Below are positions 38,475 through 56,219 of a stretch of DNA of 64,000 nucleotides, one piece after another. The DNA comes from a virus: the IMG/VR virus record IMGVR_UViG_3300028394_000045, positions 1 through 64,000 of that record. One strand, 5' to 3'. The position numbers and the translations under genes are program-made. How positions within the stretch are numbered: the stretch's first letter is position 1; the number at the start of each line of letters is the position of its first letter. Below the pieces are notes generated by a model. The model was not told the origin of the DNA and did not search any database. It was given only the letters and a program-made list of their open reading frames with translations.

Positions 38475-39863
38475 ATGCAATCATTCTTTTACGACGAACA
38501 AATACGCAGGTTTTTGCTGCAATTTACCAGGATAGTATCAAACTTCCAGGTGCAGTACGGACGTGATGGTGAGCAACCTGCGCTGCTGCGTGTGCCTGTG
38601 CGGTACGGTGATGCCAGTAGGAATGCACAAACTATCCTGCAGGAAAATTCCGCAGCCAGCATGCCCAGCACTCCGCTGATGACTTTTTACGTGTCAGCCC
38701 TGACGTATGATCGCCCTAGGATGCAGGAACCCTATCATGTGAATACAGTATCTGTGCGCCAACGCACCTATGACAGTGCCACAGACAGTTACGAAACCAC
38801 GCAAGGTAATGCATTCACTATCGAACGCTTGATGCCTGTGCCATACAGATTGGGCATCACACTGGATATCTGGACCAGTAATACCAACCAAAAATTCCAA
38901 CTGCTGGAACAGATCCTGACCTTGTTCAATCCCAGCTTGGAGATACAGAGTACGGACAACTATCTTGATTGGACCAGCCTCAGCGTGGTAGAACTAGATG
39001 ACTGTGTATGGACATCTAGAGTTATTCCACAAGGCACAGACAATCCCATTGATGTGGCTACACTAAAATTTGGGCTGCCTATCTGGATTTCATCACCGGC
39101 CAAGGTCAAGAAACTGGGTGTGGTGGAACGTGTGATCGCCAGCATGTACGACGCACAAGGCGATCTAAACAATGCCATATATCAAAACGATCTGTTGTTA
39201 GGCACCAGACAGGTGATCACTCCGTACAATTGGGCTGTGGTGTTGATCAACAACAAACTGCAATGTTTACAACAGCAAGAAACAGCACAAGAACCGGCAA
39301 ATGACTCATTGACACCGCCAACCATCGTGTCCGACAGCAATCTGTTGTGGCCAGCAGTGATTGGAGTATATGGTGCGTTCCGTCCGGGCATCAGTCAAGT
39401 GAGACTGGTGCAGCCCGACGAAACCGAAGTGATAGGAACTGTGTCATTGGATCCCAATGACGATCGTTTCTTGTTGTTTGACGTGGATATTGATACTGTG
39501 CCCGGCAACACATTGGAACCGATTGATGCTATCATCAATCCTTTGACCTACGCTCCTAATCCGGATGATTCAAATTTTCAAGGTGTAAGATATCTATTAA
39601 CTGAGGCAACCGGTAATATTGACAATGATTATCCTGCTGAAGGATGGTTGGGGGCCAACGGACGTGGCTTGGTTGCCGGTGCCAACGACATCATTGAATA
39701 CAGCAACAACTACTGGCGTGTGGTGTTCAACTCAGCGGTTGTCACAGAAGTGCAATATGTTACCAATATCACAACCAGTATCCAATATGAGTGGGACGGG
39801 CAGCAATGGATCAAGAGTTATCAAGGTGTGTATCTAGGCGGTGAATGGAGCCTTGTACTTTGA
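38475..39863 (+). CDS. gp15: tail sheath stabiliser / tail terminator, gp15-like, C-terminally extended
   Basis: FFYDEQIRRF, VPVRYG, MPVPY, QLLEQILTLFNP. Confidence 0.8.
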   Translation: MQSFFYDEQIRRFLLQFTRIVSNFQVQYGRDGEQPALLRVPVRYGDASRNAQTILQENSAASMPSTPLMTFYVSALTYDRPRMQEPYHVNTVSVRQRTYDSATDSYETTQGNAFTIERLMPVPYRLGITLDIWTSNTNQKFQLLEQILTLFNPSLEIQSTDNYLDWTSLSVVELDDCVWTSRVIPQGTDNPIDVATLKFGLPIWISSPAKVKKLGVVERVIASMYDAQGDLNNAIYQNDLLLGTRQVITPYNWAVVLINNKLQCLQQQETAQEPANDSLTPPTIVSDSNLLWPAVIGVYGAFRPGISQVRLVQPDETEVIGTVSLDPNDDRFLLFDVDIDTVPGNTLEPIDAIINPLTYAPNPDDSNFQGVRYLLTEATGNIDNDYPAEGWLGANGRGLVAGANDIIEYSNNYWRVVFNSAVVTEVQYVTNITTSIQYEWDGQQWIKSYQGVYLGGEWSLVL

Positions 39864-40285
39864 AAGCGGTAGGGGTTTGGTTCCGTAGTCATGCCACTGG
39901 CAGATACCTGTATCTCATGAGATCTGATGCCAAGCATCCGGGTGCATGGGGCTTGCCAGGTGGCAAGGTAGAGACCGGAGAAACCTTGTTGGGCGGCATG
40001 GAACGCGAGTGTGTGGAAGAACTGGGCAGCATGCCTGACTACTTGCGATTGATCCCATTAGAAAAATTCACATCCACGGACAATGCATTTGAATATCACA
40101 CCTGGGTGTGTATTGTTGATAGGGAGTTTGTGCCTGTGTTGAATCACGAACACTTGGGCTATGCTTGGTTAGACGGTGGACACTGGCCCAAGCCCATGCA
40201 TCCGGGACTGTGGAGCACAGTGAATCTCGAAGCTGTGCAACAAAAAATCGAAGCAGTTGAACGCAGTTTTCAGCCTGCGAAATAA
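39845..40285 (+). CDS. NUDIX hydrolase
   Basis: WGLPGGKVETGETLLGGMERECVEELG NUDIX box. Confidence 0.9.
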   Translation: MEPCTLKAVGVWFRSHATGRYLYLMRSDAKHPGAWGLPGGKVETGETLLGGMERECVEELGSMPDYLRLIPLEKFTSTDNAFEYHTWVCIVDREFVPVLNHEHLGYAWLDGGHWPKPMHPGLWSTVNLEAVQQKIEAVERSFQPAK

Positions 40286-40288
40286 CTG

Positions 40289-43200
40289 TTACAATCTTCC
40301 AACCAATATTTCGATAACGCCGGCAACACCGGTGTGATCCTGCACAGCTTTACCAAGTATGGATCCCGGCGCTGGATTGGATTCTGATCTAGCAGCACCA
40401 TTGCCGGCGCTGACCATCATGTCTCCTCGACGCACTGTACCGACCACACTGCATGGCACACGACCTATCAGCGCCACTGCGGTAGGGTGATTGGCTTGTA
40501 AATCACTGTTCATCAAGTGAGCAGGATCTGTAGATACCACACCGATTATTCTGGTGCTCATGTCACTATCGCTTAGTGTAATTTCTTCCGAGCCGCCAAA
40601 CTCAAGCACTGTTCCGGGTGTGTAGTAAGCGTCAGCTGCATACATCTCGGCCAAGTCAGCATATTGTGCCGATGTTGCCTTGGCAAACACAGTATTGAAC
40701 ACAGCGCCGCTGGCACCAATATTACCAGTACCTGTTGTGGCAGCATTGTTGATGGCTGTGGTCGCATTGTTGATGGTCAGGCCAGTCAGCGTACCCAAGC
40801 TGGTGATATTGCCTTGTGCTGCTGTGGTCACTGTGCCTGCTGTGGTTGCACTGCCTGCTGAACCAGATACACTACCATTTATAGTTGCTGATACAGTCAA
40901 GCCAGTCAATGTACCCACACTGGTGATATTGCCCTGTGCTGCTGTGGTCACTGTGCCTGCCGTTGTGGCCGATGTGGCCGATGGAACTGTGCCAGTTACG
41001 TTGGCACCTGGAATACTTGTAAGTCCTGCACCCGATCCATTGAATTGGCTTCCAGTCACAGTGCTGGTTACTGATACTGTGGTACCTGTGTGTGTGGTTG
41101 CATTCACATTGGCACCACCTAACACATTGCCACCTGAGATATTACCGGTCACTGCCAAACTGGTCAGTGTGCCCACACTGGTGATATTGGTCTGTGCTGC
41201 TGTGGTCAATGTACCCACGATACTGGTACCACTCAAGTTGCCACTGGTTATGTTGCCAGTAACCGCTAAACTGCCCAGTGTTCCAACTGAGGTGATATTG
41301 GTCTGTGCTGCCGTGGTCAAGGTGCCCACGATGCTAGTACCTGACAGATTGCCACTGGTTATGTTTCCTGTCACTGCTAAACTAGTTAGGGTACCAACTG
41401 AAGTGATGTTGCCTTGTGCTGCTGTGGTCACAGTTCCTGCCGTTGTGGCCGATGTAGCCAGTGGAACTGTACCTGTTACGTTGGCACCTGGAATACTGGT
41501 CAATCCTGCACCTGATCCGTTGAATTGACTTCCTGTTACAGTGCTGGTCACACTCACAGTGGTACCTGTGTGAGTGGTAGCATTCACGTTGGCACCACCT
41601 AACACATTACCGCCTGTGATATTACCGGTTACATTCAAACTACCTAATGTACCCACTGAGGTTATGTTGGTTTGTGCTGCGGTAAGCAAGGTGCCCACGA
41701 TGCTAGTACCTGACAGGTTGCCACTGGTGATGTTGCCAGTAACTGCCAAACTGGTCAGTGTGCCCACACTGGTGATATTGGTCTGTGCTGCTGTGGTCAA
41801 GGTGCCCACGATGCTAGTACCTGACAGGTTGCCACTGGTGATGTTGCCAGTAACTGCCAAACTGCCCAGTGTTCCAACTGAGGTGATGTTGCCTTGTGCT
41901 GCACCACTCACAGTGGCAGCATAGCCAGATGTATTAACACTTAACGTACCAGTTACGTTGGCAGCAGGAATTGAAGTTAGGCCTGCGCCTGATCCGTTGA
42001 ATTGGCTTGCAGTGACAGCACCAGTTGATGATATCAATCCACCTGTGAGCAAATTACCACTTGTGGTATTGCCGGTCACTGCCAGGCTGCCTAGAGTTCC
42101 CAAGCTGGTGATATTGGTCTGTGCTGCTGTGGTCAGCGTACCCACAATGCTGGTACCTGACAGGTTGCCGCCACTAATATTACCAGTCACAGCCAAACTG
42201 GTCAATGTACCAACACTGGTAATATTACCCTGAGCTGCTGTGGTCACCGTGCCTGCCGTTGTGGCCGATGGCACAGTGCCAGTTACGTTGGCGCCAGGAA
42301 TTGAAGTCAATCCAGCACCAGATCCATTGAATTGGCTTCCAGTAACTGTGCTTGTTGCACTGATTAATCCGCCTGTTAAAATATTACCGCCGGTGATGTT
42401 ACCAGTGGCGCTATAACTTCCGGCGGTGCTTGATCCACTGCCCAGACTTAAAGAAGTAGCACTAAGTGCCGCTGCGGATATGATGTTACCGCCGTTTATA
42501 TTGCCAGTCACACTCACTGTGGTACCTGTGTGTGTGGTTGCATTCACATTGGCACCACCTAACACATTGCCACCCGAGATATTACCGGTCACCGCCAAAC
42601 TGCCCAGAGTACCTACCGAGGTGATGTTAGTTTGTGCTGCTGTGGTCAATGTACCCACGATACTGGTACCACTCAAGTTGCCACCACTAATATTGCCAGT
42701 TGCAGATACTATGCCAGAAGTGGTTAGGTTGCCGCCAATCACATTGGCAGTTGCACTCAAGGTGGTAGCATTGACCACGTTGGCTCCGCTGATGTTGCCA
42801 CCGGATCCTGCTGTTATGATGTTGCCACCGGTGATGTTAGCACTTACTGAGACTGTAGTACCCGATAGCAATACAGCATTCACATTGGCTCCACCCAGCA
42901 CGTTGCCACCTGAGATGTTGCCTGTGGCCGATATTGCACCACCTGTTATCAAGTTGCCAGTAGTGGTATTGCCAGTCACGCTCAAACTTGCCAATGTGCC
43001 AACTGTGGTAGCTGCTACTCCTGTGAGCAGTGATCCATTACCAATATAGTAGTTGCCAGTGATGTTGCCTGTGACACTTACGATGCCACCGGTGTTGATG
43101 TTGGCGCCAGTGATGTTGCCTGTGGCACTTACGATGCCACCGGTGTTGATGTTAGCACCACTGATGTTGCCTGTGACAGCCAGACTGGTCAATGTGCCCA

Positions 43201-46200
43201 CTGACGTGATATTGGTCTGTGCTGCTGTGGTCAGTGTGCCCACGATACTTGTGCCACTCAAGTTACCACCAGTGATGTTACCAGTTACCGAGACTGTGGT
43301 ACCTGTGTGTGTGGTTGCATTCACATTGGCTCCACCTAACACATTACCACCGGTGATATTACCAGTTACCGAAACTGTGGTACCTGTATGTGTGGTTGCA
43401 TTCACATTGGCGCCGCCCAGGATGTTGCCACCAGTGATATTGCCTGTTGCACTTACCAAGCCACCTGTATTGATATTGGCACCAGTTACATTGCCCGAAG
43501 CTGACATCAATCCAGCAACGCCGGCACCATTGGACACTGTCCAAATATTACCGGTGCTGTTGTAGGTTAATGTAGCATATTCAGCGCCAACTGGACCAAC
43601 TCCAATGCCACCACCGTTGGCAGCGGCCGCAGTAGCAGCATTATTGGCCATGTTGATTACCAAATCATTTGTGGTGATTGTATTGGAATCAATATAAGTT
43701 ACATTGCCAGTAACGCTCAAGTTACCTTGAATAATTACCGCACCAGTGTTACCAGCAGCAGCAGGATCAATTGTGATTATGTTATCACTTGAACTGATTG
43801 TATTGCCTGTCAATGACAGTGTGCCAAAGGTGGCATTGCCACCTGTGATGTTGCCAGTTACTGAAACTGTGGTACCTGTGTGAGTTGTGGCATTCACATT
43901 GGCACCACCCAGCACATTACCGCCTGTGATGTTGCCAGTTACTGAAACTGTGGTACCTGTGTGAGTTGTGGCATTCACATTGGAACCACCCAGCACATTA
44001 CCGCCTGTGATATTGCCGGTCACATTCAAACTGCCCAATGTGCCCACTGCGGTAATATTGGTCTGTGTGGCAGTGATTATTGTACCTGCAATGCTTCCAC
44101 CTACTGTGAGGTTGCCGCCAGTGATATTACCAGTTGAACTGATCACGCCGGCTGTGAGCAAATTACCACCAGTGGTATTACCAGTCACAGCCAAGCTGGT
44201 CAGTGTGCCCACACTAGTAATATTGGTCTGTGCAGCAGTGGTCAATGTGCCCACGATGCTGGTACCTAACAGATTGCCACCTGTAATATTGCCTGTGGCA
44301 CTAATAAGACCGCTGGTCAAGATGTTGGCGCTGGCCGATACTGTGCCAGGAGTTGTTAGATTACCGCCAGCAATGTTTGCAGTGACATTGAGTGCTGACA
44401 CCACATTTGAGCTCAAGCTCAATCCTGCGGCATTTAGATTAGCGCCGGTGATGTTGCCATAGGCGCTTATGGTACCACGGGTGATACCTGTACCAACTCT
44501 TAGATCTTCAGCAATAGCAGTGTTTGTGGTAACAACATTTCCAACAGTGGTGACGTTGCCACCAATCACATTGCCTGCGGCCGAAATAGAGTTGGTAGAT
44601 AACAACACACCCGAAACTGCAATATTGCCGCCGGTGATGTTGCCACTACCTGTTACTACACCAGTGCTAAAATATACACTACCATTAAACGCCGCGCCAT
44701 TAACATTGCCGCCGGTGCTGATTTGAGTCCCGACTCCGCCGGCCAATATATTGCCGCCTGTGATGTTGCCGGTTGCGCTAATTAATCCTCCGGTTACTAA
44801 ATTACCGCCAATGACATTGGCAGTTGCGCTGACATTGCCGCCAGTTAAGATGTTGCCGGTTGCACTTACGATATTACCAACAACAAGATTGCCAACACCT
44901 GGGCCATTACTAACAGTTAAATTACCAACTTGTGCATCACCAGTGCCAAGTAATCCGAATATACCAAACAGAATGTTGCCAGCGGTGATGTTGCCACTGG
45001 TTGATATCGGGTTTGTTCCAAATGCTGCCAAGTTAGCTGCCACGTTGGCATTACCGTATGTTGCTGGTAATCCGGTTAGTTGAGATCCGTTACCCAGGAA
45101 ATAATTTCCAGTTATATTGCCTGTGGTGCTGTAGCTTGCAGCAGTTGATGCACCTGTAGTGATAGTTGCGCCACCGGTGATGATATTGCCACCCGTGACG
45201 TTGCCAGTGGCGCTGTAGCTTGCGGCAGTTGAAGTACCAGATGAACTGATCCCGCCTGTGATAATGTTACCACCGGTGATGTTGCCTGTGGTTAATATTG
45301 GGTTTGAGCCAAATGCTGCCAGATTAGCTGCCACGTTGGCATTGCCATAACCGGCTGCAATACCCGTCAGCTGAGATCCGTTACCGATAAAGTAGTTGCC
45401 CGTGACGTTACCAGTGGCACTTACGATTCCGCCTGTTAATATGTTTCCGCCGGTTGCATTACCTGTCACCGCTAAACTGATCAATGTGCCCACGCTGGTG
45501 ATATTGGTCTGTGCTGCTGTGGTCAAAGTACCCACAATGCTGGTGCCTGACAGATTGCCGCCAGTGATGTTACCTGTTACTGATACAGTGGCACCTGTAT
45601 GTGTGGTAGCATTTACATTGGCACCACCAAGAATGTTGCCTGCTGTGATATTGCCACTGGTTGATATGGGATTTGAGCCAAATGCTGCTAGATTAGCTAC
45701 AACATTGGCATTGCCATATGTGGCTGCAAGGCCGGTCAGTTGAGATCCGTTACCGATAAAAAAGTTGCCGGTTACGTTACCTGTTGCTAGCACTATGCCG
45801 GCAGTGGTTAGGTTGCCGCCAATCACATTGGCAGTTGCACTCAACGTGGTACTGTTAATTACATTGGCTCCGCTGATGTTGCCACCGGATCCTGTTGTTA
45901 CGATGTTGCCACCGGTGATATTGCCAGTTGCACTTACCAGGCCGGCTGTTAATACATTTCCACCAGTGACATTACCGGTACTACTTACAATTCCGGCTGT
46001 TAGTAAATTTCCACTTGTGGCATTGCCTGTGACTGTTAAACTGCCTAACGTACCCACTGAAGTGATATTGGTCTGTGCTGCTGTGGTCAGTGTGCCCACG
46101 ATGCTGGTACCACTTAGGTTACCGCCAGTGATGTTACCGGTTACTGATACAGTGGCACCTGTGTGTGTGGTTGCATTCACATTAGCACCACCTAGTATGT

Positions 46201-48064
46201 TGCCACCAGTGATGTTACCAGTTACCGAAACTGTGGTACCTGTATGTGTGGTTGCATTCACATTGGCACCACCTAGGATATTACCACCAGTGATGTTACC
46301 GCTGGTGGATATTGGGTTTGAGCCAAATGCTGCCAAGTTAGCTGCCACGTTGGCATTGCCATAACCGGCTGCAATACCCGTCAGCTGAGAGCCATTACCG
46401 ATAAAAAAGTTGCCGGTGATATTGCCCGTGGCACTCACAATGCCAGCAGTTAAGATGTTGCCGCCGGTGACGTTGGCACTGACTGAAACAGTGGTACCTG
46501 TATGAGTTGTGGCGTTGACATTGGCACCACCTAGGATATTACCACCAGTGATATTGCCACTTGTGGATATTGGGTTTGAGCCAAATGCTGCCAAGTTAGC
46601 TGCCACATTGGCATTGCCATATGTGGCTGCAATACCCGTCAGCTGAGAGCCATTACCGATAAAAAAGTTGCCGGTGATATTGCCGGTTGTGCTGACTGGA
46701 TTTGTGCCCAATGCAGCCAAGTTGGCAACAACATTGGCGTTGCCGTAACTGGCAGCAATACCTGTCAGCTGAGATCCATTGCCAATAAAGAAATTGCCGG
46801 TTACATTACCGGTTGATGATACAATGCCAGCAGTTAATATATTACCACCAGAGATGTTGCCGGTTACCGCTACGGTGCCCAACGTACCCACTGAGGTTAT
46901 ATTGGTCTGTGCTGCTGTGGTCAGGGTACCCGCAATACTGGCGCCGCTGAGGTTGCCACCGGTTATATTACCTGTTGCACTTATCACACCACCTGTCAAT
47001 ACATTGCCGCCGGTGACATTGGCACTGACTGAAACTGTGGTACCTGTATGTGTGGTAGCATTCACGTTGGCGCCGCCTAACACATTACCACCAGTGATGT
47101 TACCAGTCACTGCTAGACTAGTCAATGTGCCCACTGAGGTAACATTGGTCTGTGCTGCTGTGGTCAGGGCACCCGCGATACTGGTGCCTGAGAGATTGCC
47201 ACCTGTGATGTTGCCGGTGGTGGATACTGGATTGGTTCCAAGTGCTGCCAAGTTGGCCACCACATTGGCATTGCCATATGCGGCTGCAAGACCGGTAAGT
47301 TGTGATCCATTGCCAACAAAGTAGTTGCCAGTGATATTGCCTGTGGTTGATACAGGATTAGTGCCAAATGCTGCCAAGTTGGCAGCCACGTTGGCATTGC
47401 CGTATGGAGTAAGAGTTCCGGCGCCGGATATCACTGAAGTCTGTCCTGATTCATTTACAAAAACAATGCTGGTACTGTTGGCACTGATACTGGCGTTGCC
47501 TAAGAAAAGAGAATTGTTTGAAAGATAAAGATCGTTAAATGCAGCAGTTGGGCTACCTAGATTATAGGTGATATTAGCTGTTGGAATTATGTTGGCTTTG
47601 ACAACAATATTAGCCGGAGTAAAAACTGCTATATTGCTAACACCACCCACGCCCACGGAAACATTGCTATTGGCCGCTACACTCACATTGCTGTTGCCGT
47701 TGATAATTGATGTTCCGCCGCCACCGGCAGAGATGCCAGTCAGTTGAGATCCGTTACCTACAAAATATGTTGAGTAAACTGTATCGAATCGAACATTGGC
47801 GGTACCGATATCATACACCGCATCAATGCCGGGCACAATTGTGCTGTTGGCCTGAATGTTGCCAACACCATTGCCTGCCAGTACCAAATTGTTATTTGTC
47901 CCAATCACACCAATGGTGTTTCCGGAGATCACCACATTACTATCTACAGGTCCTGCTGCATATATTTCGGAAAAATTTTCATTTACTGCGGTAAATGCAT
48001 CGCGTAATGACTCGCCGGTGCCATCATTTGTTGTGTTACCGGTGTTGATGATCTGTTGTGCCAT
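40289..48064 (-). CDS. giant repeat-rich fibre/adhesin-like virion protein (2591 aa)
   Basis: N-terminal INTGNTTNDGTGESLRDAF anchor motif; G/N/T/V repeats; C-terminal ADLAEMY...GVVSTDPAHLMN...GRVP...GKA chaperone-like domain. Confidence 0.8.
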   Translation of the reverse strand: MAQQIINTGNTTNDGTGESLRDAFTAVNENFSEIYAAGPVDSNVVISGNTIGVIGTNNNLVLAGNGVGNIQANSTIVPGIDAVYDIGTANVRFDTVYSTYFVGNGSQLTGISAGGGGTSIINGNSNVSVAANSNVSVGVGGVSNIAVFTPANIVVKANIIPTANITYNLGSPTAAFNDLYLSNNSLFLGNASISANSTSIVFVNESGQTSVISGAGTLTPYGNANVAANLAAFGTNPVSTTGNITGNYFVGNGSQLTGLAAAYGNANVVANLAALGTNPVSTTGNITGGNLSGTSIAGALTTAAQTNVTSVGTLTSLAVTGNITGGNVLGGANVNATTHTGTTVSVSANVTGGNVLTGGVISATGNITGGNLSGASIAGTLTTAAQTNITSVGTLGTVAVTGNISGGNILTAGIVSSTGNVTGNFFIGNGSQLTGIAASYGNANVVANLAALGTNPVSTTGNITGNFFIGNGSQLTGIAATYGNANVAANLAAFGSNPISTSGNITGGNILGGANVNATTHTGTTVSVSANVTGGNILTAGIVSATGNITGNFFIGNGSQLTGIAAGYGNANVAANLAAFGSNPISTSGNITGGNILGGANVNATTHTGTTVSVTGNITGGNILGGANVNATTHTGATVSVTGNITGGNLSGTSIVGTLTTAAQTNITSVGTLGSLTVTGNATSGNLLTAGIVSSTGNVTGGNVLTAGLVSATGNITGGNIVTTGSGGNISGANVINSTTLSATANVIGGNLTTAGIVLATGNVTGNFFIGNGSQLTGLAATYGNANVVANLAAFGSNPISTSGNITAGNILGGANVNATTHTGATVSVTGNITGGNLSGTSIVGTLTTAAQTNITSVGTLISLAVTGNATGGNILTGGIVSATGNVTGNYFIGNGSQLTGIAAGYGNANVAANLAAFGSNPILTTGNITGGNIITGGISSSGTSTAASYSATGNVTGGNIITGGATITTGASTAASYSTTGNITGNYFLGNGSQLTGLPATYGNANVAANLAAFGTNPISTSGNITAGNILFGIFGLLGTGDAQVGNLTVSNGPGVGNLVVGNIVSATGNILTGGNVSATANVIGGNLVTGGLISATGNITGGNILAGGVGTQISTGGNVNGAAFNGSVYFSTGVVTGSGNITGGNIAVSGVLLSTNSISAAGNVIGGNVTTVGNVVTTNTAIAEDLRVGTGITRGTISAYGNITGANLNAAGLSLSSNVVSALNVTANIAGGNLTTPGTVSASANILTSGLISATGNITGGNLLGTSIVGTLTTAAQTNITSVGTLTSLAVTGNTTGGNLLTAGVISSTGNITGGNLTVGGSIAGTIITATQTNITAVGTLGSLNVTGNITGGNVLGGSNVNATTHTGTTVSVTGNITGGNVLGGANVNATTHTGTTVSVTGNITGGNATFGTLSLTGNTISSSDNIITIDPAAAGNTGAVIIQGNLSVTGNVTYIDSNTITTNDLVINMANNAATAAAANGGGIGVGPVGAEYATLTYNSTGNIWTVSNGAGVAGLMSASGNVTGANINTGGLVSATGNITGGNILGGANVNATTHTGTTVSVTGNITGGNVLGGANVNATTHTGTTVSVTGNITGGNLSGTSIVGTLTTAAQTNITSVGTLTSLAVTGNISGANINTGGIVSATGNITGANINTGGIVSVTGNITGNYYIGNGSLLTGVAATTVGTLASLSVTGNTTTGNLITGGAISATGNISGGNVLGGANVNAVLLSGTTVSVSANITGGNIITAGSGGNISGANVVNATTLSATANVIGGNLTTSGIVSATGNISGGNLSGTSIVGTLTTAAQTNITSVGTLGSLAVTGNISGGNVLGGANVNATTHTGTTVSVTGNINGGNIISAAALSATSLSLGSGSSTAGSYSATGNITGGNILTGGLISATSTVTGSQFNGSGAGLTSIPGANVTGTVPSATTAGTVTTAAQGNITSVGTLTSLAVTGNISGGNLSGTSIVGTLTTAAQTNITSLGTLGSLAVTGNTTSGNLLTGGLISSTGAVTASQFNGSGAGLTSIPAANVTGTLSVNTSGYAATVSGAAQGNITSVGTLGSLAVTGNITSGNLSGTSIVGTLTTAAQTNITSVGTLTSLAVTGNITSGNLSGTSIVGTLLTAAQTNITSVGTLGSLNVTGNITGGNVLGGANVNATTHTGTTVSVTSTVTGSQFNGSGAGLTSIPGANVTGTVPLATSATTAGTVTTAAQGNITSVGTLTSLAVTGNITSGNLSGTSIVGTLTTAAQTNITSVGTLGSLAVTGNITSGNLSGTSIVGTLTTAAQTNITSVGTLTSLAVTGNISGGNVLGGANVNATTHTGTTVSVTSTVTGSQFNGSGAGLTSIPGANVTGTVPSATSATTAGTVTTAAQGNITSVGTLTGLTVSATINGSVSGSAGSATTAGTVTTAAQGNITSLGTLTGLTINNATTAINNAATTGTGNIGASGAVFNTVFAKATSAQYADLAEMYAADAYYTPGTVLEFGGSEEITLSDSDMSTRIIGVVSTDPAHLMNSDLQANHPTAVALIGRVPCSVVGTVRRGDMMVSAGNGAARSESNPAPGSILGKAVQDHTGVAGVIEILVGRL
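40780..47410 (-). repeat. intragenic modular tandem repeats of fibre 1
   Basis: recurring units GNITGGNLSGTSIVGTLTTAAQTNITSVGTL.SL.VT, GNITGGNVLGGANVNATTHTGTTVSVT, GNFFIGNGSQLTG..A.YGNANV.ANLAA.G.NP.ST, GSQFNGSGAGLTSIPGANVTGT. Confidence 0.85.
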
Positions 48065-48069
48065 GTGGG

Positions 48070-48106
48070 TTCCTGAGTTTATGATATATTTACCATAACT
48101 CAGGAA
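48070..48106 (-). promoter_or_regulatory. RBS-occluding hairpin with the late promoter in its loop
   Basis: TTCCTGAGTTATG-[GTAAATATAT]-CATAAACTCAGGAA, then CCCACATG. Confidence 0.65.
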
Positions 48107-48126
48107 TTAGGATTGCACGGATCAGT

Positions 48127-51100
48127 TTATAGTCGGCCTACTACCACGTGGATTGTGCCCGAGTCGCCTGAAAAATCTTCTAATGATTTGCCAATCACAG
48201 TGCCAATAGAGGGTGTTGCACAGGCTTGAGCATGACCGTTGCCCGCAGAAATCATCATGGCACCTTTCCAAACTGTGCCAGTGACTCGGGTAGGTACTCT
48301 TCCGGTCAGGGCCACTGCCACCACATGTTCGCCTGTTTGTGTGGAGTTCATTAGATGTGCCGGATCAGTTGATACCACACCGGCCACTCGATCGCTGGCT
48401 GATGTGGTGCTAATGGTGATTTCTTGTGTGCCGCCAAAATCCACCACAGTGCCTGGCGCATAGTCGGCATCGCTTGCATACATCTCAGCCAAGTCGGCGT
48501 ATTGTGCTGTGGTTGCCTTGGCAAATACTGTGTTGAATGTGCCAGCAGCCGAGCCAATATTACCGGTACCGGTTGTGGCAGCATTGGTAATTGCTGTAGT
48601 GCCGTTGTTGATCGTCAAGCCAGTCAATGTGCCCACGCTGGTGATGTTGGTCTGTGCAGCAGTGGTCAATGTGCCCACAATGCTGGTGCCAGAAAGATTA
48701 CCGCCAATGATGTTACCTGTGATACTGAGCCCACTGGAACCACCTTGATACCCGGCAGCACTGATGTTTCCTGTTAATACTGTTCCTGCTGCACTCACGG
48801 TACCAGTTATACTAACTGTGGTACCGGTGTGTGTAGTAGCACTGATATTACCACCGGTGATGTTGCCGGTCACTGCCAAACTACCCAATGTGCCTACTGA
48901 AGTGATATTGGTTTGTGCTGCTGTGGTCAATGTGCCCACGATGCTAGTACCAGAAAGATTACCACCCGTGATGTTGCCCGAAACATATGCTGTACCTGTC
49001 ACGCCCAGTGTGGTGGTCGGAGCGGTGTTTCCAATCCCCACATTGCCGCTGGAGGTGATACGCATGCGTTCTGTAGTATTAGTATACCAGATATGGCTAT
49101 AGTCGGCGCTTATAACATATTGCTCACCACCACTACCATTATACAAGCTAAATGCACGACTAGATCCTGCATTAGAAAATATGTACGTACCCTGCGTAGA
49201 GTTATAACCAAGTACACCAGCAGAATCTACAGCAGTCGATGTAGTGGCTATGAAACGTGTTGCAGTCACCGTGCCCGATACTGACAAGCTGCCTAGCGTG
49301 CCCACACTGGTGATGTTGGTCTGTGCTGCTGTGGTCAATGTGCCCACAATACTGGTACCAGAAAGATTACCACCGGTTATGTTACCGGTAGCTGAGATCA
49401 ATCCAGTTACATATTCGCCGGTGCTGGCAAACACGGCCACATTTGATGTGCCGGCTACGCCAACTGTGATGTTGCCGCCTGCACTTACCACAGTCACATT
49501 ACTGGTACCGCTGTTGATATTGGCCACGCTGGTAATAACACCAGTCAGCAATGCGCCGTTGCCCAAGATGTAGTTGCCGGTTACGTTGCCTGTCACACTG
49601 ACTACAGTACCAGTCAAACTTACTGCATTCACAGTTCCACCACCATTTACATTGGCACCGGTGATGTTTCCTGATGTTGATAACACGCCCGGAGTTAATA
49701 AATTGCCGCCGGTTACGTTGGCACTGACTGACACTGTGGTACCTGTGTGTGTTGTGGCATTTACATTGGCACCACCTAACACATTACCACCGGTGATGTT
49801 GCCAGTTACAGAGACTGTGGTACCTGTATGTGTGGTGGCATTCACATTAGCTCCGCCCAGCACATTGCCACCTGTGATGTTGCCAGTAGCACTTACGATA
49901 CCACCTGTTAATACGTTGCCACCGGTGGCATTGCCAGTTACTGCAAGGCTACCCAATGTACCCACTGACGTAATGTTAGTTTGTGCAGCAGTGGTCAGGG
50001 TACCCACAATACTTGTGCCGCTTAGGTTGCCACCTGTGATATTACCAGTTGCTGAAACCACTCCAGCGGTGTTGATATTGGCTCCGGTCACATTGCCGGT
50101 TGCACTAGAATATCCAATTATGTTGTATCCACTTGGACTTATGTTACCAACACTGACATTGCCCACAACTATCAACACATTGGCGCCGGTGCTGGTGATG
50201 GACATGGAAGTGGTTCCATTGGCGATCGTTGTGACCGATACGTTGGCAGCGGCAGTCACATTGCTGAGATATCCGCCGTCACCTACAAAATATGCACTGG
50301 TCACAATATTTCCGGCGCCGCTTATCAGTCCCGATCCAAACAAGATATTGCCGCCGGTGATGTTTCCAGTAGCACTAAATGTTGTTCCTGTGTGAGTTGT
50401 GGCAGCTATGTTGCCGCTGGTGATATTGCCAGTCACACTCACCGTGGTACCTGTAAGGGTAGTAGCATTCACATTAGCGCCACCTGAAATATTGCCGCCG
50501 GTGATGTTGCCAGTTGCAGATACCTGGCCGGCTGTTAATACATTGCCACCGGCGATATTGGCACTCACACTCACGGTGGTACCTGTGAGAGTTGTAGCAT
50601 TGACATTGGCTCCGCCTAATACGTTGCCACCTGTAATATTGCCAGTAACTGATACCGTGGTTCCGGATAACAATGTGGCATTCACGTTGGCACCACCATT
50701 AACATTGCCGCCTGTTATGTTGCCGGTTACACTTAGATTGGTGCCTGTGAGATTGATCGCATTCACATTGGCACCACCTAACACATTACCACCAGTGATG
50801 TTGCCAGTTACTGACACAGTGGTGCCTGTGTGTGTGGTAGCATTAACATTGGCACCGCCTAACACATTGCCTGCTGTGATGTTGCCTGTGGCACTGACTG
50901 AGCCGGTTGTTCTTAAGTTACCTGCTTGCACATCTGAGTTGGCTATGAGGTAAGCACCGGTGATGTTGCCTACTGAATTTATTGATACAGTAGAAAGTAA
51001 ATTTCCAGTTGTGACGTTACCAACTACACTCAATCCACTAGCACTGGAAAAGGTAGCCACTGCTGTGGGAGTTATAGCACCTGAGGCTGTGGTGAATATT

Positions 51101-52095
51101 TGTACATTGGTAGCACGACTGGTATCGGTAAATGCCTCTGCGGCCGTGACATCTAATCTCCCAGTTGATGCATTACCAAACTGCAAAGTACCACTGCTAA
51201 ATCCACGTGCTGTAAATTGAGCCAGTGTGTCACCTGATTGTGTTCCAGTAGGAGTGGCGCCTGTACCGCCAGCTGATCGTCCGGTAAATGCACTATACGA
51301 TCCTGTACCAAATGCATCTTGAACGATCCTGGTGTTGGCCGTATCTGCACCTGAAATATGCAAATCGGTTCCCAATGTTGTGCTGTTGCCTGTTATAGAA
51401 TATACCACAGTCTGTGGAGTTGCCAGTATGGTCAATTCGCAATCTGGCGTGTTTGTTCCTACTGCTAAATTAGCACCAGTAATATTGCCAGTTGCTGAGA
51501 TTATACCACCAGTACGTATGTTACCACCTTGGATGTTGCCGGTCACAGTGGCGATACCACCAGTAACCAGATTGCCACCGGTGACATTAGCTGTTGCAGA
51601 AATTAATCCACCAGTGACTAAATTGCCACCAGTTACGTTTGCACTTACCGAGACTGTGGTACCTGTAAGGGTAGTAGCATTTACATTAGCACCGCCTAAT
51701 ACATTACCTCCGGTGATATTGCCAGTAGCCGAAATCAATCCTGCTGTTCTTAGATTTCCACCTTGAATGTTACCAGTAGCACTCACTGTGCTGGCCGTAC
51801 TCACTGCACCAGTGATGTTGGCAGTACCTGTGATATTAGCCCCGGTTGAAGTGAATACTGCTACGTTTGCAGTACCACCTACACTGATATTTGCATTGCC
51901 GCTGGGAGAAGGAATACCAAGGTTAGTAGTACCGCTGTTCAATGCAGTGGCAGAAAGATTACCGGTCAGCGTGGTGGTACCCGATACCGTAAGATTTCCG
52001 GTTACGGTCACTGTACCACCTTGCAGGGTAATAACATCCGATGCTGTAACAGTTTGTATGGTAAGATTACCGAGCACACGCTTGAAAGTAGACAT
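48127..52095 (-). CDS. second repeat-rich fibre protein (1322 aa)
   Basis: same repeat units and the same C-terminal ADLAEMY...VVVGRL domain; ERMRITSSGNVGIG fibre motif; TATAAATA at 52113-52120. Confidence 0.8.
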   Translation of the reverse strand: MSTFKRVLGNLTIQTVTASDVITLQGGTVTVTGNLTVSGTTTLTGNLSATALNSGTTNLGIPSPSGNANISVGGTANVAVFTSTGANITGTANITGAVSTASTVSATGNIQGGNLRTAGLISATGNITGGNVLGGANVNATTLTGTTVSVSANVTGGNLVTGGLISATANVTGGNLVTGGIATVTGNIQGGNIRTGGIISATGNITGANLAVGTNTPDCELTILATPQTVVYSITGNSTTLGTDLHISGADTANTRIVQDAFGTGSYSAFTGRSAGGTGATPTGTQSGDTLAQFTARGFSSGTLQFGNASTGRLDVTAAEAFTDTSRATNVQIFTTASGAITPTAVATFSSASGLSVVGNVTTGNLLSTVSINSVGNITGAYLIANSDVQAGNLRTTGSVSATGNITAGNVLGGANVNATTHTGTTVSVTGNITGGNVLGGANVNAINLTGTNLSVTGNITGGNVNGGANVNATLLSGTTVSVTGNITGGNVLGGANVNATTLTGTTVSVSANIAGGNVLTAGQVSATGNITGGNISGGANVNATTLTGTTVSVTGNITSGNIAATTHTGTTFSATGNITGGNILFGSGLISGAGNIVTSAYFVGDGGYLSNVTAAANVSVTTIANGTTSMSITSTGANVLIVVGNVSVGNISPSGYNIIGYSSATGNVTGANINTAGVVSATGNITGGNLSGTSIVGTLTTAAQTNITSVGTLGSLAVTGNATGGNVLTGGIVSATGNITGGNVLGGANVNATTHTGTTVSVTGNITGGNVLGGANVNATTHTGTTVSVSANVTGGNLLTPGVLSTSGNITGANVNGGGTVNAVSLTGTVVSVTGNVTGNYILGNGALLTGVITSVANINSGTSNVTVVSAGGNITVGVAGTSNVAVFASTGEYVTGLISATGNITGGNLSGTSIVGTLTTAAQTNITSVGTLGSLSVSGTVTATRFIATTSTAVDSAGVLGYNSTQGTYIFSNAGSSRAFSLYNGSGGEQYVISADYSHIWYTNTTERMRITSSGNVGIGNTAPTTTLGVTGTAYVSGNITGGNLSGTSIVGTLTTAAQTNITSVGTLGSLAVTGNITGGNISATTHTGTTVSITGTVSAAGTVLTGNISAAGYQGGSSGLSITGNIIGGNLSGTSIVGTLTTAAQTNITSVGTLTGLTINNGTTAITNAATTGTGNIGSAAGTFNTVFAKATTAQYADLAEMYASDADYAPGTVVDFGGTQEITISTTSASDRVAGVVSTDPAHLMNSTQTGEHVVAVALTGRVPTRVTGTVWKGAMMISAGNGHAQACATPSIGTVIGKSLEDFSGDSGTIHVVVGRL

Positions 52096-52683
52096 TCAAA
52101 GTTCCTTTGTGTTATTTATACGATTCAAAAAGTCCGCCATGGGCATGTGATGTAGATTGCCAACATTTTTGAAATCTGCTATGTCAGCAGTGGTCGGACC
52201 AACAACTCGATAAAAACTGACTTTGCGAAAATCCTTACAGAGCTTTGCAATCTGTTTGGCCCAATTGCCAGTGTAAGTGGGGTTTGCAGAACTCTTTTTA
52301 TAGAATTCTGTATCCGCATAACAGTTGTTGAACCGACCAGTTCGGGTTGGCCCCATATCAAACCCAATCATATAAACTGCTCGGTTGGCATCTGCTGCTG
52401 CTATACTCACAGCTACTGGCCCTGAACTGTAGCCAAAATATTCTTGATCGATACGTACTGCTCCAGAATCTGGCAAAGGACGGCGGGTGTACATTCTGTT
52501 TTTTTGTGCATAACCTGTTCGTTGTATGGCTTCACTGATAGGCACATCAGTACTGATCAACACTGTAGGAGTGAATTCACGATAGATCGCGTTGCATCCA
52601 TATACTGGCCCAAGCGACAGCAAGAGATCTAAGTCAATCCCTTGACGGCTCACGCCATTACCCAACACGAATGCTCTGCTCAT
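52096..52683 (-). CDS. Maf/MptE(DUF115)-like putative glycosyltransferase-related protein
   Basis: AFVLGNGVSR, YGCNAIYR, SSGPVA, VYMIGFDM pattern. Confidence 0.5.
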   Translation of the reverse strand: MSRAFVLGNGVSRQGIDLDLLLSLGPVYGCNAIYREFTPTVLISTDVPISEAIQRTGYAQKNRMYTRRPLPDSGAVRIDQEYFGYSSGPVAVSIAAADANRAVYMIGFDMGPTRTGRFNNCYADTEFYKKSSANPTYTGNWAKQIAKLCKDFRKVSFYRVVGPTTADIADFKNVGNLHHMPMADFLNRINNTKEL

Positions 52684-52715
52684 AAAAAATCCTCCCAGTA
52701 TGTAGCTGGGAGGAT
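52684..52715 (-). terminator. terminator-like hairpin whose 3' arm is the SD of the downstream gene
   Basis: ATCCTCCCAG-CTACATA-CTGGGAGGAT-TTTTT-ATG. Confidence 0.6.
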
Positions 52716-52731
52716 CCGGACACCTAACAAA

Positions 52732-53562
52732 TTAGGATGTGACGCTGGCGATTTGAGCCAATTGCAGAGTACCATTTTGCGACTGAGCGCCGCCAATAAC
52801 TTCAGCACCAGACCATGTAACCGAACCTTCATCAGTGAAGAAGTTGGTAGGATAGAAGTTTTCTGCACTTTGGACATTGACACCCAAATTGCTGTTGCTA
52901 TAGTTGCCAACGGTCATGCCATTCCAGTCACGTACCCACTTGTTGGTGATATAACTGGCATACACAGCAGCACTATCGCCTACTGAATAACTAATACTCA
53001 TGTTGCCTGCAGACGGAGTTGCTGTGTTTGACAACACACATTGACCTACAGGATATACTGTACCATTACCGGCACCTACAGCCAATGCTGTGAATATTCT
53101 ACCTACTGCTGCTGTACCACTCAAGATTGTGGACCAATCACTTGTGCCCAAGGATACGATTTGATAACTTTGACCAACAATAAGACCGCTGCTGAGTGCA
53201 TAAGTTCCGCCGGTATAGGCTACCAGGAACTTGTGCGCACCTTTTTGGCGTATGATACGTCCGGTATAGCTGCTGGCCAATGAAAAAGTGTTTGACCCAT
53301 CTGCCAATAGAATATTGACCAATGCAGCAACTTCTGGATAGGTAGCACTGGCTGTGCTGGTCACCGGCGAACCGCCAACCACACCCAGATATTCAGTGTC
53401 ATTTAGAGTTTGAACTGGGGTGTTATAAGCAGGATTTGTCAATGCACTAAACGGTGGAAAACCTGCGTCAGTTAGAATGTTTTGATTGTAGCTGGTTGTT
53501 GAACCGGAAACACTTGTGCCTGAACCAGTGTTTGTTTTTTGAATTTTAAGAGCTCTTCCCAT
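52732..53562 (-). CDS. hypothetical virion structural protein
   Basis: AAGGAG SD before ATG 53562 (MGRALK...), IIRQKGAHKFLV, S/T/G-rich; late promoter at 53653-53658. Confidence 0.6.
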   Translation of the reverse strand: MGRALKIQKTNTGSGTSVSGSTTSYNQNILTDAGFPPFSALTNPAYNTPVQTLNDTEYLGVVGGSPVTSTASATYPEVAALVNILLADGSNTFSLASSYTGRIIRQKGAHKFLVAYTGGTYALSSGLIVGQSYQIVSLGTSDWSTILSGTAAVGRIFTALAVGAGNGTVYPVGQCVLSNTATPSAGNMSISYSVGDSAAVYASYITNKWVRDWNGMTVGNYSNSNLGVNVQSAENFYPTNFFTDEGSVTWSGAEVIGGAQSQNGTLQLAQIASVTS

Positions 53563-53707
53563 TTTTTTCTCCTTAAAGAAGCCCAATGTGGGTTCTAGCC
53601 ACTACGCAGTGGTTGCTGCATAAGACGCATTATCGCGTACATAGTTGACTTATATTTAGCTGCATGTTAAAATTTGATACCGCACAGCGGATTTTATTAA
53701 ATATCTC

Positions 53708-54856
53708 ATGACATCAAACGAACTCATCGAAGCAGGCAATCAACATCGTGCCGAAGATAATCCTGCCCAAGCATTACAATGCTATGCTATGGCATTTGTA
53801 CAAGATCCAGAATCAGCGGCAGCATTCAACAACTATGGCAACGTGCAACGTGAGATGGGACACCCGGCCAGAGCCATTCCGTTCTTGCAGCACTCATTGG
53901 TGTTGGAACCCAACAATGTCACAGCACAGTTCAACTTGGCCGTGAGTTATCTGTTGATGGGCAACTATGCGCAAGGATGGCCAGCTTACGAATCAAGATG
54001 GAACTACGAACATCTGGCCGGCACAGAACCCAAGTATTCTCAACCTCGCTGGCGCGGCGAAGACCTTAGAGACAAGACCATCTTGGTGGTAGGCGAGCAA
54101 GGACATGGTGATTGCATACAGTTTGTTCGATTCTTGTACAACCTGCACATGATGGGTGCCCGGATCAAACTGCAAGTGACTGACGGATTGATTCCTGTGA
54201 TGAGCAGCAGCAGTATACTACAACAGGTCAGCAGTTATACCACTGACATGGGTGAGTTTGATTATTGGATTCCCATCATGAGCCTGCCGGGCATACTGGG
54301 CATCACTGTGGATACCATACCCAAGATACAAAGCTACCTCCATGCACAACCTGCATTGGTAAAAGACTGGCTGGATAGACTGGGACCAAAAACACGCATG
54401 CGTGTGGGCATCAGTTGGAGTGGGCGCAGAGACGCCTGGCTCAATCGTCACAAAGGCGTGCCGTTTCCTGTTATCCTGGACATGATACGTGCCAATCCTG
54501 AGTACGAGTGGATCAATCTGCAGATAGATGCCACACCGGATGAAGAACAAGCACTGGCCGATGCTGGTGTGACCAGATATCCCGGCAGCATCGTGAGCTT
54601 TGCAGAGACTGCGGCGTTGATCATGCACATGGACGTGGTCATAGGTGTTGATACTGCGGTGTCACATCTAGCCGGTGCACTGGGCCGACCAGCATGGATT
54701 ATGCTGAATGCTTATGCCACAGATTGGCGTTGGTTGTTGGACCGAGATTCCAGTCCTTGGTACGCCACAGCCAGATTGTTCCGACAGCCTGTAATGGGCG
54801 ATTGGGACAGCGTTACTAAAAAAGTATCCCAGTATCTCTCTTGGTTCAAAGTCTAG
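53708..54856 (+). CDS. TPR-repeat plus GT9-like (GT-B) glycosyltransferase
   Basis: TPR pattern AAFNNYGNV..., AQFNLA; GEQGHGDCIQFVRF, VGISWSG, DVVIGVDTAVSHLAGALG, DWRW; TAAATA 4 nt before ATG. Confidence 0.8.
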   Translation: MTSNELIEAGNQHRAEDNPAQALQCYAMAFVQDPESAAAFNNYGNVQREMGHPARAIPFLQHSLVLEPNNVTAQFNLAVSYLLMGNYAQGWPAYESRWNYEHLAGTEPKYSQPRWRGEDLRDKTILVVGEQGHGDCIQFVRFLYNLHMMGARIKLQVTDGLIPVMSSSSILQQVSSYTTDMGEFDYWIPIMSLPGILGITVDTIPKIQSYLHAQPALVKDWLDRLGPKTRMRVGISWSGRRDAWLNRHKGVPFPVILDMIRANPEYEWINLQIDATPDEEQALADAGVTRYPGSIVSFAETAALIMHMDVVIGVDTAVSHLAGALGRPAWIMLNAYATDWRWLLDRDSSPWYATARLFRQPVMGDWDSVTKKVSQYLSWFKV

Positions 54857-56102
54857 CCAGATATACCAGGCGGTTCAGTGCCGCGGTTGATTCGTCTACT
54901 TTGTTTTTTCTCGCTTGTTGTATAATATCCTGTATTTCGGCGTCAGTAGCGACTGCTGAATCACTGGCAGGAGCAGCAGGTGTTTTTTCAGCTGCTGGAG
55001 CCGGTGTCTCGGTAGAAGCAGCCGGTGAGGGAGGAGACCAGTCAGTTGGTATTTCTTTTACTGTTGGACCTGCACGTTCTGGTGGCAACGGCTTAGGAGC
55101 CAAAACTTTTTCAGGTCCTTGCGTGACAATAGAAACTGGATTGTAGTAGTCCGGAACTGTGCCGGGTCTGATTGCATTGATTGCTGATGGTGCAGCAGCG
55201 CCTAATGCGGCAACCCCAGCAGCGGTTAGTCCTTTTTTACCCCACCATCCCCATTGCTTGGCTTGTTCCTGGGCTGCTGCCGGATTTTGGGTGGCCAGGT
55301 CCAACAATCGATCTGCCATGTCTCGTGGTAAAGTCACAGTGTCTGCTTGGGGTTCCGGAGCAGCTCGCTGACCGGAACCTTGTCCAGGGCGGCGTGGTCT
55401 AACTTGTCTACCGCCTGTGGCCGCAGGTGCTGGCGCTGGTGCATTGGCAGACATCGGCGGCTCAAAGTCAGAAGGCAATCCAGGTTCTTGTCTCTCCGCT
55501 GCTGCTGCTTTTTCAGCAGCCGCTGTTCTTTCGGCGGCTGTTCTTTCAGCTTGTGCTGCTTTTTCAGCTGCATATGCCTCAGCTTCTGCGCTGGGTTTGC
55601 CTTTATTAGGCATACCTGGATTCATATCATGTCTGGCACGAACTTCCTGGTCGGCTGCAGATGTGTCTGCTTTGGGTTTTGGTTTTGGAAGCGAACCTAT
55701 TCTAGCAGGTGGTAGATTCTGCAAATAGTCCGGTAAGGCCTGTGTCTTGCTGAGGTTAGGATCAAATCCTTGATCTCCACGACGCCTAAAGAGTGATGGC
55801 AATTCTGATCTTTGTGGTGGAACTATTCCAAGTGCTGCTTTTTCTGCGTCTGACAATCGATCACCTGAGGCTTTAATACCACCTAATTCTGTATTTGTTG
55901 CTGCTTGTGTTCTAGCGATCGCTTGATCCATTGTTTCGCCAGGTTTCATAACAATCCTGGGTTTCATTGCCGACGATGCTGCTTGCACGGTTTTGTTAAG
56001 GTATGGTTCGACATACTTAACAACTGGTTGGATTCCTTTTGTTATCCAAGGTGGAAGTGTAACTTCGTCAAGACGTCTAGGTGCAATTTCGTTTATTTTC
56101 AT
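54846..56102 (-). CDS. hypothetical Pro/Ala-rich probable internal head protein
   Basis: MKINEI...LDE start after ATAAATA (56126-56132); C-terminus VDES..LNRLVYLARL. Confidence 0.55.
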   Translation of the reverse strand: MKINEIAPRRLDEVTLPPWITKGIQPVVKYVEPYLNKTVQAASSAMKPRIVMKPGETMDQAIARTQAATNTELGGIKASGDRLSDAEKAALGIVPPQRSELPSLFRRRGDQGFDPNLSKTQALPDYLQNLPPARIGSLPKPKPKADTSAADQEVRARHDMNPGMPNKGKPSAEAEAYAAEKAAQAERTAAERTAAAEKAAAAERQEPGLPSDFEPPMSANAPAPAPAATGGRQVRPRRPGQGSGQRAAPEPQADTVTLPRDMADRLLDLATQNPAAAQEQAKQWGWWGKKGLTAAGVAALGAAAPSAINAIRPGTVPDYYNPVSIVTQGPEKVLAPKPLPPERAGPTVKEIPTDWSPPSPAASTETPAPAAEKTPAAPASDSAVATDAEIQDIIQQARKNKVDESTAALNRLVYLARL

Positions 56103-56194: not shown

Positions 56195-56219
56195 GTTTTC
56201 CAAATAAATGGATTGTGGA

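Follow-up and report, generated by a model that had tools for sequence, protein, structure and literature searches.

A putative miniature Maf-type glycosyltransferase among the late structural genes of a freshwater T4-like jumbo phage: does the phage glycosylate its virion?

Two very long repetitive fibre genes are located next to two putative sugar transferase genes in the genome of an uncultured freshwater T4-like jumbo phage, and this arrangement raises the question of whether the phage decorates its own virion proteins with sugars. The analysed stretch of DNA (hereafter, the window) comprises the first 64 kb of the 151.6-kb IMG/VR virus record IMGVR_UViG_3300028394_000045 (G000), the estimated completeness of which is 44%; its near-complete relatives span 320–353 kb. 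The fibre genes (fibre 1 and fibre 2) are placed between neck/sheath-type genes and head genes. One candidate transferase is a 195-aa protein with a Maf/sialyltransferase fold (hereafter, the Maf-like protein), and the other combines tetratricopeptide repeats (TPR) with a glycosyltransferase domain of the GT9 type (hereafter, TPR-GT) (Table 1). Virion-protein glycosylation is a reasonable hypothesis here because both enzyme types have protein O-glycosyltransferase relatives and are located in the late structural block. The reading that we put forward, as possible rather than probable, is that the Maf-like enzyme O-glycosylates a late virion protein with a host cytidine monophosphate (CMP)-activated sugar, TPR-GT being an optional accessory; it draws on sequence comparison, predicted models and analogy with known systems. 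Of the two enzymes, the Maf-like one appears to be the better candidate.

The 195-aa protein (P0003) taken alone had no Pfam match (E ≤ 1) and no sequence match in the PDB. The family to which it belongs is large (1937 clusters at 90% identity, 893 representatives at 50%) and carries no functional name: its members are annotated as "hypothetical protein", and PHROGs lists phrog_30607 as a family of unknown function. A profile and an alignment were built from 50 diverse members of the family. The search of PDB sequences with this profile returned GT42 sialyltransferases only, namely CstI, CstII and Pasteurella Lst (E 7.5e-8 to 1e-5), and the alignment to them falls on the GNGxS and SSG...GxD motifs. 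Residues G8, N9, G10, G88, G107 and D109 are invariant in the 50-sequence alignment. Weak Pfam matches were also found among the 50 relatives, to the MptE-like family (PF01973) in 17 of them (best E 3.6e-4) and to the CST-I family in 12. Modelling with AlphaFold 2 led to a model with a predicted local distance difference test (pLDDT) value of 95, for which Foldseek ranked CstI and CstII at the top, followed by Maf and human ST6GALNAC2. A second structure search, independent of Foldseek, placed the Magnetospirillum Maf (5mu5_A) first among 48,161 chains (Z 12.9, root-mean-square deviation 3.4, 166 of 195 residues aligned); well below it came MptE HPPK and CstI, at Z 9.3 each, and then the thiamine pyrophosphokinases at Z 6.5–8.2. 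An earlier reading of the window from its letters alone (hereafter, the sequence-only reading) had named this gene Maf/MptE-like and placed it against fibre 2. Both points were confirmed: profile and structure comparison give a Maf/CstII fold with Maf/MptE/GT42-like features, and the last base of the gene immediately precedes the fibre 2 start codon.

Among the characterised enzymes, Maf (PMC11339370) and FlmG (PMC7591256) glycosylate flagellin in the cytoplasm, and Maf enzymes require no sequon (PMC11339370). The phage protein shares the fold of the Maf catalytic domain, and its gene likewise adjoins genes for Ser/Thr-rich filament proteins. However, Maf is approximately 630 aa long, and its N- and C-terminal accessory domains were not found in the phage protein, the whole 195 aa of which is covered by the catalytic-domain alignment; a fused TPR or a GlfM-type specificity factor (bioRxiv 10.1101/2023.12.03.569772) is absent as well. 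In addition, the phage has no nonulosonate synthesis genes, and its enzyme would modify phage proteins in place of flagellin. The phage family contains the GNGxS and SSG...GxD motifs of the GT42 enzymes CstI and CstII (Campylobacter) and Lst, but the phage protein is about 60–100 residues shorter, the 50-sequence alignment contains no invariant or near-invariant histidine, and CstI and CstII act on lipooligosaccharide. The catalytic histidine of CstII is His188. As a separate observation, a larger relative (P0255, 435 aa) contains two domains of Maf-like fold in tandem; its N-terminal domain passes the Pfam MptE-like threshold (49.9 bits vs. 34.6), and the 195-aa protein is a homologue of its C-terminal domain. 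A second, far more divergent Maf-like ORF (open reading frame) was found in G008 and G015 approximately 16–19 kb from the first.

To evaluate what travels with these genes, loci were collected from IMG/VR, 80 via the 195-aa protein and 80 via the C-terminal domain of the fibres. In 71 of the 72 freshwater loci (L003–L074; 52–90% identity), the Maf-like gene is immediately preceded by the gene of a 284-aa protein and followed by G/N-rich fibre genes; the lone exception (L021) is a locus that ends 52 bases upstream of the Maf-like gene. The ORF downstream of the Maf-like gene starts 1–4 nt after it in most freshwater relatives. Five of the five near-complete genomes with the fibre C-terminal domain (G001, G002, G003, G006 and G008) contain the Maf-like gene, and since the gene is invariant within the freshwater clade, a presence/absence comparison is uninformative there. 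Outside the freshwater clade, the Maf-like gene and the fibres do not go together. In marine relatives (38% identity), the gene order is portal, Maf-like protein, 321-aa protein, prohead protease, scaffold and capsid, with no such fibres adjoining. In the pelagiphage HTVC008M, the Maf-like gene is flanked by uvsY and uvsW, at a site downstream of the capsid gene; this phage was examined for GN-type fibres over 1–84 kb, and its large structural proteins examined are poor in GN (0.4–1.1 per 100 aa) and of normal charge (13–22% D, E, K and R). A bolder proposal is that phrog_30607 as a whole is a stripped-down Maf-type protein O-glycosyltransferase that decorates virions with a host CMP-keto-acid sugar and is core to an aquatic T4-like clade comprising the freshwater jumbo phages, the marine relatives and HTVC008M. 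We consider this proposal rather improbable in its full breadth.

The 284-aa protein (P0005) was compared with Pfam, PHROGs and NCBIfam without a match, and all its ESM Atlas leads were below 0.9. Its identity across the loci of the freshwater relatives ranges from 26 to 92%. This protein could be a substrate or a partner of the Maf-like enzyme.

The second candidate enzyme (P0004) is a TPR protein with a GT9 fold, as the sequence-only reading had proposed, and its gene is located approximately 1.6 kb from fibre 2. Residues 1–100 form six TPR helices (about three pairs) and residues 117–382 form a GT-B domain. The Pfam search returned TPR families and Glyco_transf_9, the latter at 29.2 bits against a cut-off of 22 and with only profile positions 173–204 aligned, and NCBIfam gave weak matches to heptosyltransferases I, II and III. 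For the AlphaFold 2 model (pLDDT 84.5), the VIA comparison matched the glycosyltransferase domain with the GT9 structure 3tov (Z 18.4), WaaF (1psw, Z 17.5), WaaC (2h1f, Z 16.8) and TibC (4rap, Z 15.9), all of which share the GT-B catalytic domain with it. ADP-heptose is the typical donor of the GT9-type fold. A Foldseek search with the whole chain placed SPY and OGT at the top (E 7e-11), at a template modelling (TM) score of just 0.25–0.31, and this ranking was driven by the architecture of TPR plus GT-B. The GT41 Pfam family PF13844 did not match TPR-GT at E ≤ 0.1, and HMW1C/NGT was not among the Foldseek or VIA matches listed.

The GT41 enzymes OGT and SPINDLY have the same plan, with the TPR array at the N-terminus and the GT-B domain after it, and so does FlmG of Caulobacter, which binds flagellin through its N-terminal domain (PMC7591256). 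Unlike OGT and SPINDLY, the phage enzyme has a glycosyltransferase domain closer to GT9 and only about three TPR pairs. TibC, of the BAHT family, is a GT9-like enzyme that heptosylates serines of beta-helical repeat adhesins/autotransporters (PMC4358343), and its G/S/T/N-rich beta-helical substrate is much like the fibres described here. The assignment of TPR-GT as a TibC-type enzyme in the sense of PMC4358343 was considered and rejected: TibC has an N-terminal beta-barrel and a four-cysteine iron finger, while the phage enzyme starts with TPR helices, lacks a beta-barrel and contains only two cysteines (C25 and C136).

TPR-GT is an accessory gene within the clade. It occupies the syntenic slot in only part of the freshwater loci, and whole-record searches found it in only two (G003 and G006) of the five near-complete genomes mentioned above. 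No TPR-GT homologue was found in G001, G002 and G008, the completeness of which is 95–100%, and G001 and G002 contain no GT9 domain at all. The sequence-only reading had counted relatives with the same fibres but none of the transferases as evidence against it, and for TPR-GT such near-complete relatives exist. Its proposed late promoter also did not hold. Only ATTAAATA is found 8 nt before the ATG, with no TATAAATA, and a sigma70-type site matching 10 of 12 consensus positions is present instead, which suggests that TPR-GT may be expressed early or by the host polymerase, though it is located inside the late module.

The exact late box TATAAATA occurs only twice in the window, both times on the minus strand (8528 and 52113). 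The copy at 52113 sits where the Maf-like gene ends, within its last codons, and serves fibre 2, which can therefore be transcribed independently of the Maf-like gene. The 284-aa gene is separated from the Maf-like gene by a hairpin that looks like a terminator, and the 3' arm of this hairpin includes GGAGGA, from which ribosomes would start on the Maf-like gene. Judged from its position, the hairpin would attenuate read-through and mask translation of the Maf-like gene. A low output would fit an enzyme that is needed in small amounts beside abundant structural proteins.

The sugar donor was also considered. A NeuB-type synthase (PF03102) and a CMP-sugar cytidylyltransferase (PF02348) are absent in G000 and in three near-complete relatives. 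A phage-made nonulosonate pathway was rejected on this ground, and the self-made glycan of the sequence-only reading finds no nonulosonate route in these four records. The CMP-sugar donor would therefore be host-derived. Some Maf enzymes accept CMP-Kdo (PMC11339370; bioRxiv 10.1101/2020.06.03.131540). Outside the window, at 131.5–135.2 kb of G000 (L084:5577–9160, minus strand), an operon for nucleotide-sugar tailoring was found; it encodes an epimerase/dehydratase, a DegT/DnrJ/EryC1 aminotransferase, a PIG-L family protein and a second epimerase/dehydratase, and a ThyX gene is located beside it. Its gene content suggests that the phage may make an amino-deoxy sugar of its own. A purpose of the transferases in T4-style glucosylation of DNA was set aside as unlikely, since a ThyA-type hydroxymethylase was not found in the same four records.

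The proposed sequence of events is as follows. The Maf-like enzyme would be made late and at a low level, behind the hairpin that would hide its ribosome-binding site. Before assembly, it would act in the cytoplasm on a late virion protein and O-glycosylate Ser/Thr residues there, in the way that Maf modifies flagellin. The host would supply the donor, a CMP-activated keto-acid sugar (CMP-Kdo or a nonulosonate). There are three candidate targets, none of them favoured: the Ser/Thr-rich fibres, a head protein and the 284-aa protein encoded next to the enzyme. In genomes that possess TPR-GT, this enzyme would attach a second sugar, and its TPR domain would select the protein that receives it. 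This scheme is consistent with the fold and profile identity of the 195-aa protein, with the tight packing of its gene against the fibre genes, with the combination of TPR and GT-B, which is the architecture of known protein O-glycosyltransferases, with the match of TPR-GT to TibC and with the nucleotide-sugar modification operon in the same phage. A number of points weigh against it. The 195-aa protein lacks the terminal domains of Maf and a Pfam match of its own; the family has no invariant histidine to match the catalytic one of CstII; and the fold is common to pyrophosphokinases (Z 9.3 for MptE HPPK and 8.2 for thiamine pyrophosphokinase). The GT9 domain is structurally most similar to heptosyltransferases of lipopolysaccharide (LPS), the TPR-GT gene has an early-type promoter, and the enzyme is dispensable for the fibres, as G001, G002 and G008 show. 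Finally, what stays next to the Maf-like gene from lineage to lineage is the head module and not the fibres.

The most serious alternative, particularly for the GT9 enzyme, is that both transferases act on the host envelope. The LPS core, capsule or some other glycan at the surface of the infected cell would be remodelled, for instance as a barrier to superinfection or to keep progeny from adhering to debris; the fibres would carry no modification, and their proximity would be incidental. We regard this as possible but doubtful. The likeness of the GT9 domain to LPS heptosyltransferases (3tov, WaaF, WaaC and the NCBIfam heptosyltransferases I, II and III) speaks for it, and the 195-aa protein is related to CstI and CstII, which sialylate lipooligosaccharide. 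The sigma70-type promoter suggests early expression of TPR-GT, the gene is accessory, as host-range or exclusion genes often are, and cyanophage glycosyltransferases are usually read as host-surface modifiers (PMC12801897). On the other hand, the TPR domain suggests a protein partner, and the Maf-like gene is embedded in a string of late structural genes and is core to the clade. In addition, the best structural match of the 195-aa protein is the protein glycosyltransferase Maf, and both enzymes are predicted to have small, soluble-looking folds, from which a membrane anchor would not be expected.

It is less likely that the 195-aa protein is not a glycosyltransferase at all. According to this explanation, it would be a pyrophosphokinase of the MptE or thiamine type, or a late factor without catalytic activity that helps to assemble the head or the virion. 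Its fold is indeed common to MptE HPPK and thiamine pyrophosphokinases, the weak Pfam matches favour MptE-like over CST-I, an invariant histidine is missing, and in two other lineages the gene is located in the head-gene block or just after it. However, the kinases fall 3.6 Z units short of Maf, the alignment of which spans 166 of 195 residues, the PDB profile search finds only sialyltransferases at E < 1e-5, and the invariant GNGxS and GxD residues align to the CMP-sugar-binding motifs of CstII. We consider this explanation unlikely.

The remaining alternative concerns the fibres themselves. The two fibre ORFs (2591 and 1322 aa) were found where the sequence-only reading had placed them, both on the minus strand, and their description as Ser/Thr-rich with nearly charge-free repeats is accurate (G 17–18%, T 18–19%, N 10–12%, S 10%). 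They are also rich in A and V; D, E, K and R together amount to 0–1 per 100 residues over most of the repeat region, and residues 301–1000 of fibre 1 contain none of the four. Fibre 1 consists of a putative gp10-type N-terminal attachment motif, about 2400 aa of charge-poor G/T/N/S repeats and a conserved globular C-terminal domain of about 150 aa. Its residues 3–36 match the N-terminus of the T4 gp10 chains in baseplate structures (E 5.5e-4), and Pfam T4_gp9_10_N gave a weak match (E 0.023, 15.2 bits vs. a cut-off of 25). Because the first 36 residues match the gp10 N-terminus, the sequence suggests that fibre 1 is probably attached to the baseplate. The C-terminal domain is common to both fibres and matches phrog_22593 (E 3e-10), with no Pfam family and no solved-structure relative found by sequence; it also occurs in virion/baseplate proteins of PA5oct-, Atu_ph07- and Campylobacter CP21-like phages. 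As a side observation, this domain (40292–40861, minus strand; residues ~54–157 of the last 190) shows 36–45% identity to proteins of PA5oct, Atu_ph07, Phosso and CP21, which are unrelated jumbo and Campylobacter phages. In another group of loci (L055–L066, e.g., L059:13274–17305), fibres of similar size with the same C-terminal domain are built from a different, Asn-poor repeat with 0.1 sequons and 0.2 GN per 100 aa, and the Maf-like gene is present; it follows that the chemistry of the fibre repeats was swapped during evolution.

The repeats of the window's fibres contain many N-x-S/T sequons. The sequence-only reading proposed that these sequons are N-glycosylated, that the TPR domain picks the fibre and that the island at 262–8522 extends and methylates the glycan, giving a giant-virus-like glycocalyx. 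The spacing of about one sequon every 10–20 residues was confirmed (median 15 in fibre 1 and 17 in fibre 2), and the numbers of sequons (146 and 64) exceed the shuffled expectation of 81 ± 7 and 36 ± 5 (z = 9.1 and 5.7). The observed count was reached in none of 2000 shuffles, and the excess is about 1.8 times what composition predicts. Thus, the claim of an excess stands for this phage, but the clade-wide signal behaves like repeat composition and not as selection for sequons would. Ten 7-mers (TGNITGG, NVNATTH, QTNITSV and seven more) contain 75 of the 146 sequons of fibre 1; a few repeat words hold much of the set, and therefore the copies are not independent events. The excess is largely inherited with the repeat.

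For a comparison across the clade, 57 distinct fibre ORFs from loci of 37 relatives were analysed. The median ratio of observed to expected sequons was 1.34 with TPR-GT and 1.32 without it (Mann–Whitney p = 0.30), and the mirror motif S/T-x-N was equally enriched in these ORFs (1.35–1.38). We know of no glycosylation system that reads the mirror motif. The fibres of L049 and L050 have just 0.9 sequons per 100 aa in the presence of TPR-GT, while those of G001 and G002, which lack it, have 4.5–5.4 GN and 4.1–4.6 sequons per 100 aa. The sequons look like a by-product of the GN(I/V/L)(T/S)GG repeat and not like N-glycosylation sites. Their role as the target of the transferases was not upheld, given the mirror motif and the relatives that carry the Maf-like gene with only 0.1 sequons per 100 aa. 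The enzyme side of the claim fared no better: the characterised relatives of both enzymes are O-glycosyltransferases or lipid-glycan transferases. A dense N-x-S/T pattern in G/N/T-rich fibre repeats should not be counted as evidence of N-glycosylation.

The resemblance of the (Y/F)FIGNGSQLTG unit to the chlorovirus glycoprotein repeat, also noted in the sequence-only reading, was seen as a match below the Pfam threshold. Residues 356–555 of fibre 1 match Chlorovi_GP_rpt (PF06598, Vp260-type) with E 3.2e-4 and 21.1 bits vs. 27, and two stretches cover the full-length profile of 34 positions. Only a minority of the repeat units is involved, and a shared repeat says nothing about glycosylation. 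The Pfam scan of the whole fibres gave no match, Chlorovi_GP_rpt included, and a protein search with 560 aa of the fibre repeats found nothing, for which low-complexity masking is a possible reason. The methyltransferases of the island at 262–8522 were confirmed (one FkbM-type and three S-adenosylmethionine (SAM) methyltransferases), and sub-threshold GT2 and DUF6716 matches were found there as well. Despite the sequon excess in this phage, the chlorovirus resemblance and these methyltransferases, an N-glycan glycocalyx is very improbable: no enzyme resembles a known N-glycosyltransferase, the glycosyltransferase domain is GT9-like with no GT41 Pfam match, sequon density is independent of TPR-GT, which three near-complete relatives lack while the two measured remain rich in sequons, and L049 has TPR-GT with few sequons.

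Virion glycosylation is established for mycobacteriophages and chloroviruses, and, to our knowledge, it has not been established for T4-like phages. As cited in PMC12619734 and PMC12801897, Freeman et al. 2023 showed experimentally that mycobacteriophages carry glycans on capsid and tail-tube C-termini. As in the present case, the mycobacteriophages have phage-borne glycosyltransferase genes beside structural genes, and there, the virion proteins are the substrate; the enzyme families are different, and the phage described here is a T4-like myovirus. A clade-wide miniature Maf-type enzyme within the late structural genes is a concrete candidate for such a function. If the proposal is true, no virion glycosylation system would have been known before in T4-like phages that infect Gram-negative bacteria; the virions would have a sialic-acid-like surface, and the surface chemistry of abundant aquatic phages would depend on host sugar-nucleotide pools. 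Adsorption and stickiness are influenced by this chemistry, as are losses to grazing or enzymes. In addition, no smaller enzyme of the Maf type would be known, and it would be useful for glyco-engineering.

The features of the locus are given in Table 1. On the minus strand, the reading order is a 441-aa protein, the 284-aa protein, the 195-aa gene, fibre 2 and fibre 1, and no gene other than TPR-GT lies on the plus strand between head and fibre genes. The 441-aa neighbour has no family in Pfam, PHROGs or NCBIfam, and a near-identity search of positions 52000–57000 against cultured phages gave no match.

Table 1. Features of the fibre locus and of other parts of the window (positions in the 64-kb stretch).
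Feature	Position	Strand	Remarks
Methyltransferase-rich island	262–8522		One FkbM-type methyltransferase, three SAM methyltransferases
Virion structural protein	37101–38471	+	
Sheath-stabiliser-like gene	38475–39863	+	
NUDIX hydrolase	39845–40285	+	Converges on the 3' end of fibre 1
Fibre 1, 2591 aa	40289–48064	−	ORF and translation
Fibre 2, 1322 aa	48127–52095	−	ORF; repeat words and C-terminal domain as in fibre 1
Maf/sialyltransferase-fold protein, 195 aa, phrog_30607	52096–52683	−	Catalytic core only
Exact T4-type late box TATAAATA	52113–52120	−	17 nt upstream of the fibre 2 start codon, then AGGA
12-pair hairpin followed by U6	52687–52717	−	Before the Maf-like ATG; −19.1 kcal/mol, z = −2.97
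S/G/T-rich 284-aa protein (P0005)	52732–53586	−	
Sigma70-type promoter-like site TTGACT-17-TAAAAT	53645–53673	+	Extended −10 TG; consensus match only
TPR + GT9-fold glycosyltransferase, 382 aa (P0004)	53708–54856	+	Pfam and structure matches
Major head protein	56220–57416	−	
Scaffold-family gene	57439–58527	−	

Nucleotide sugars are often hydrolysed by NUDIX enzymes, and the NUDIX hydrolase gene that converges on fibre 1 may share the sugar-handling theme of this locus.

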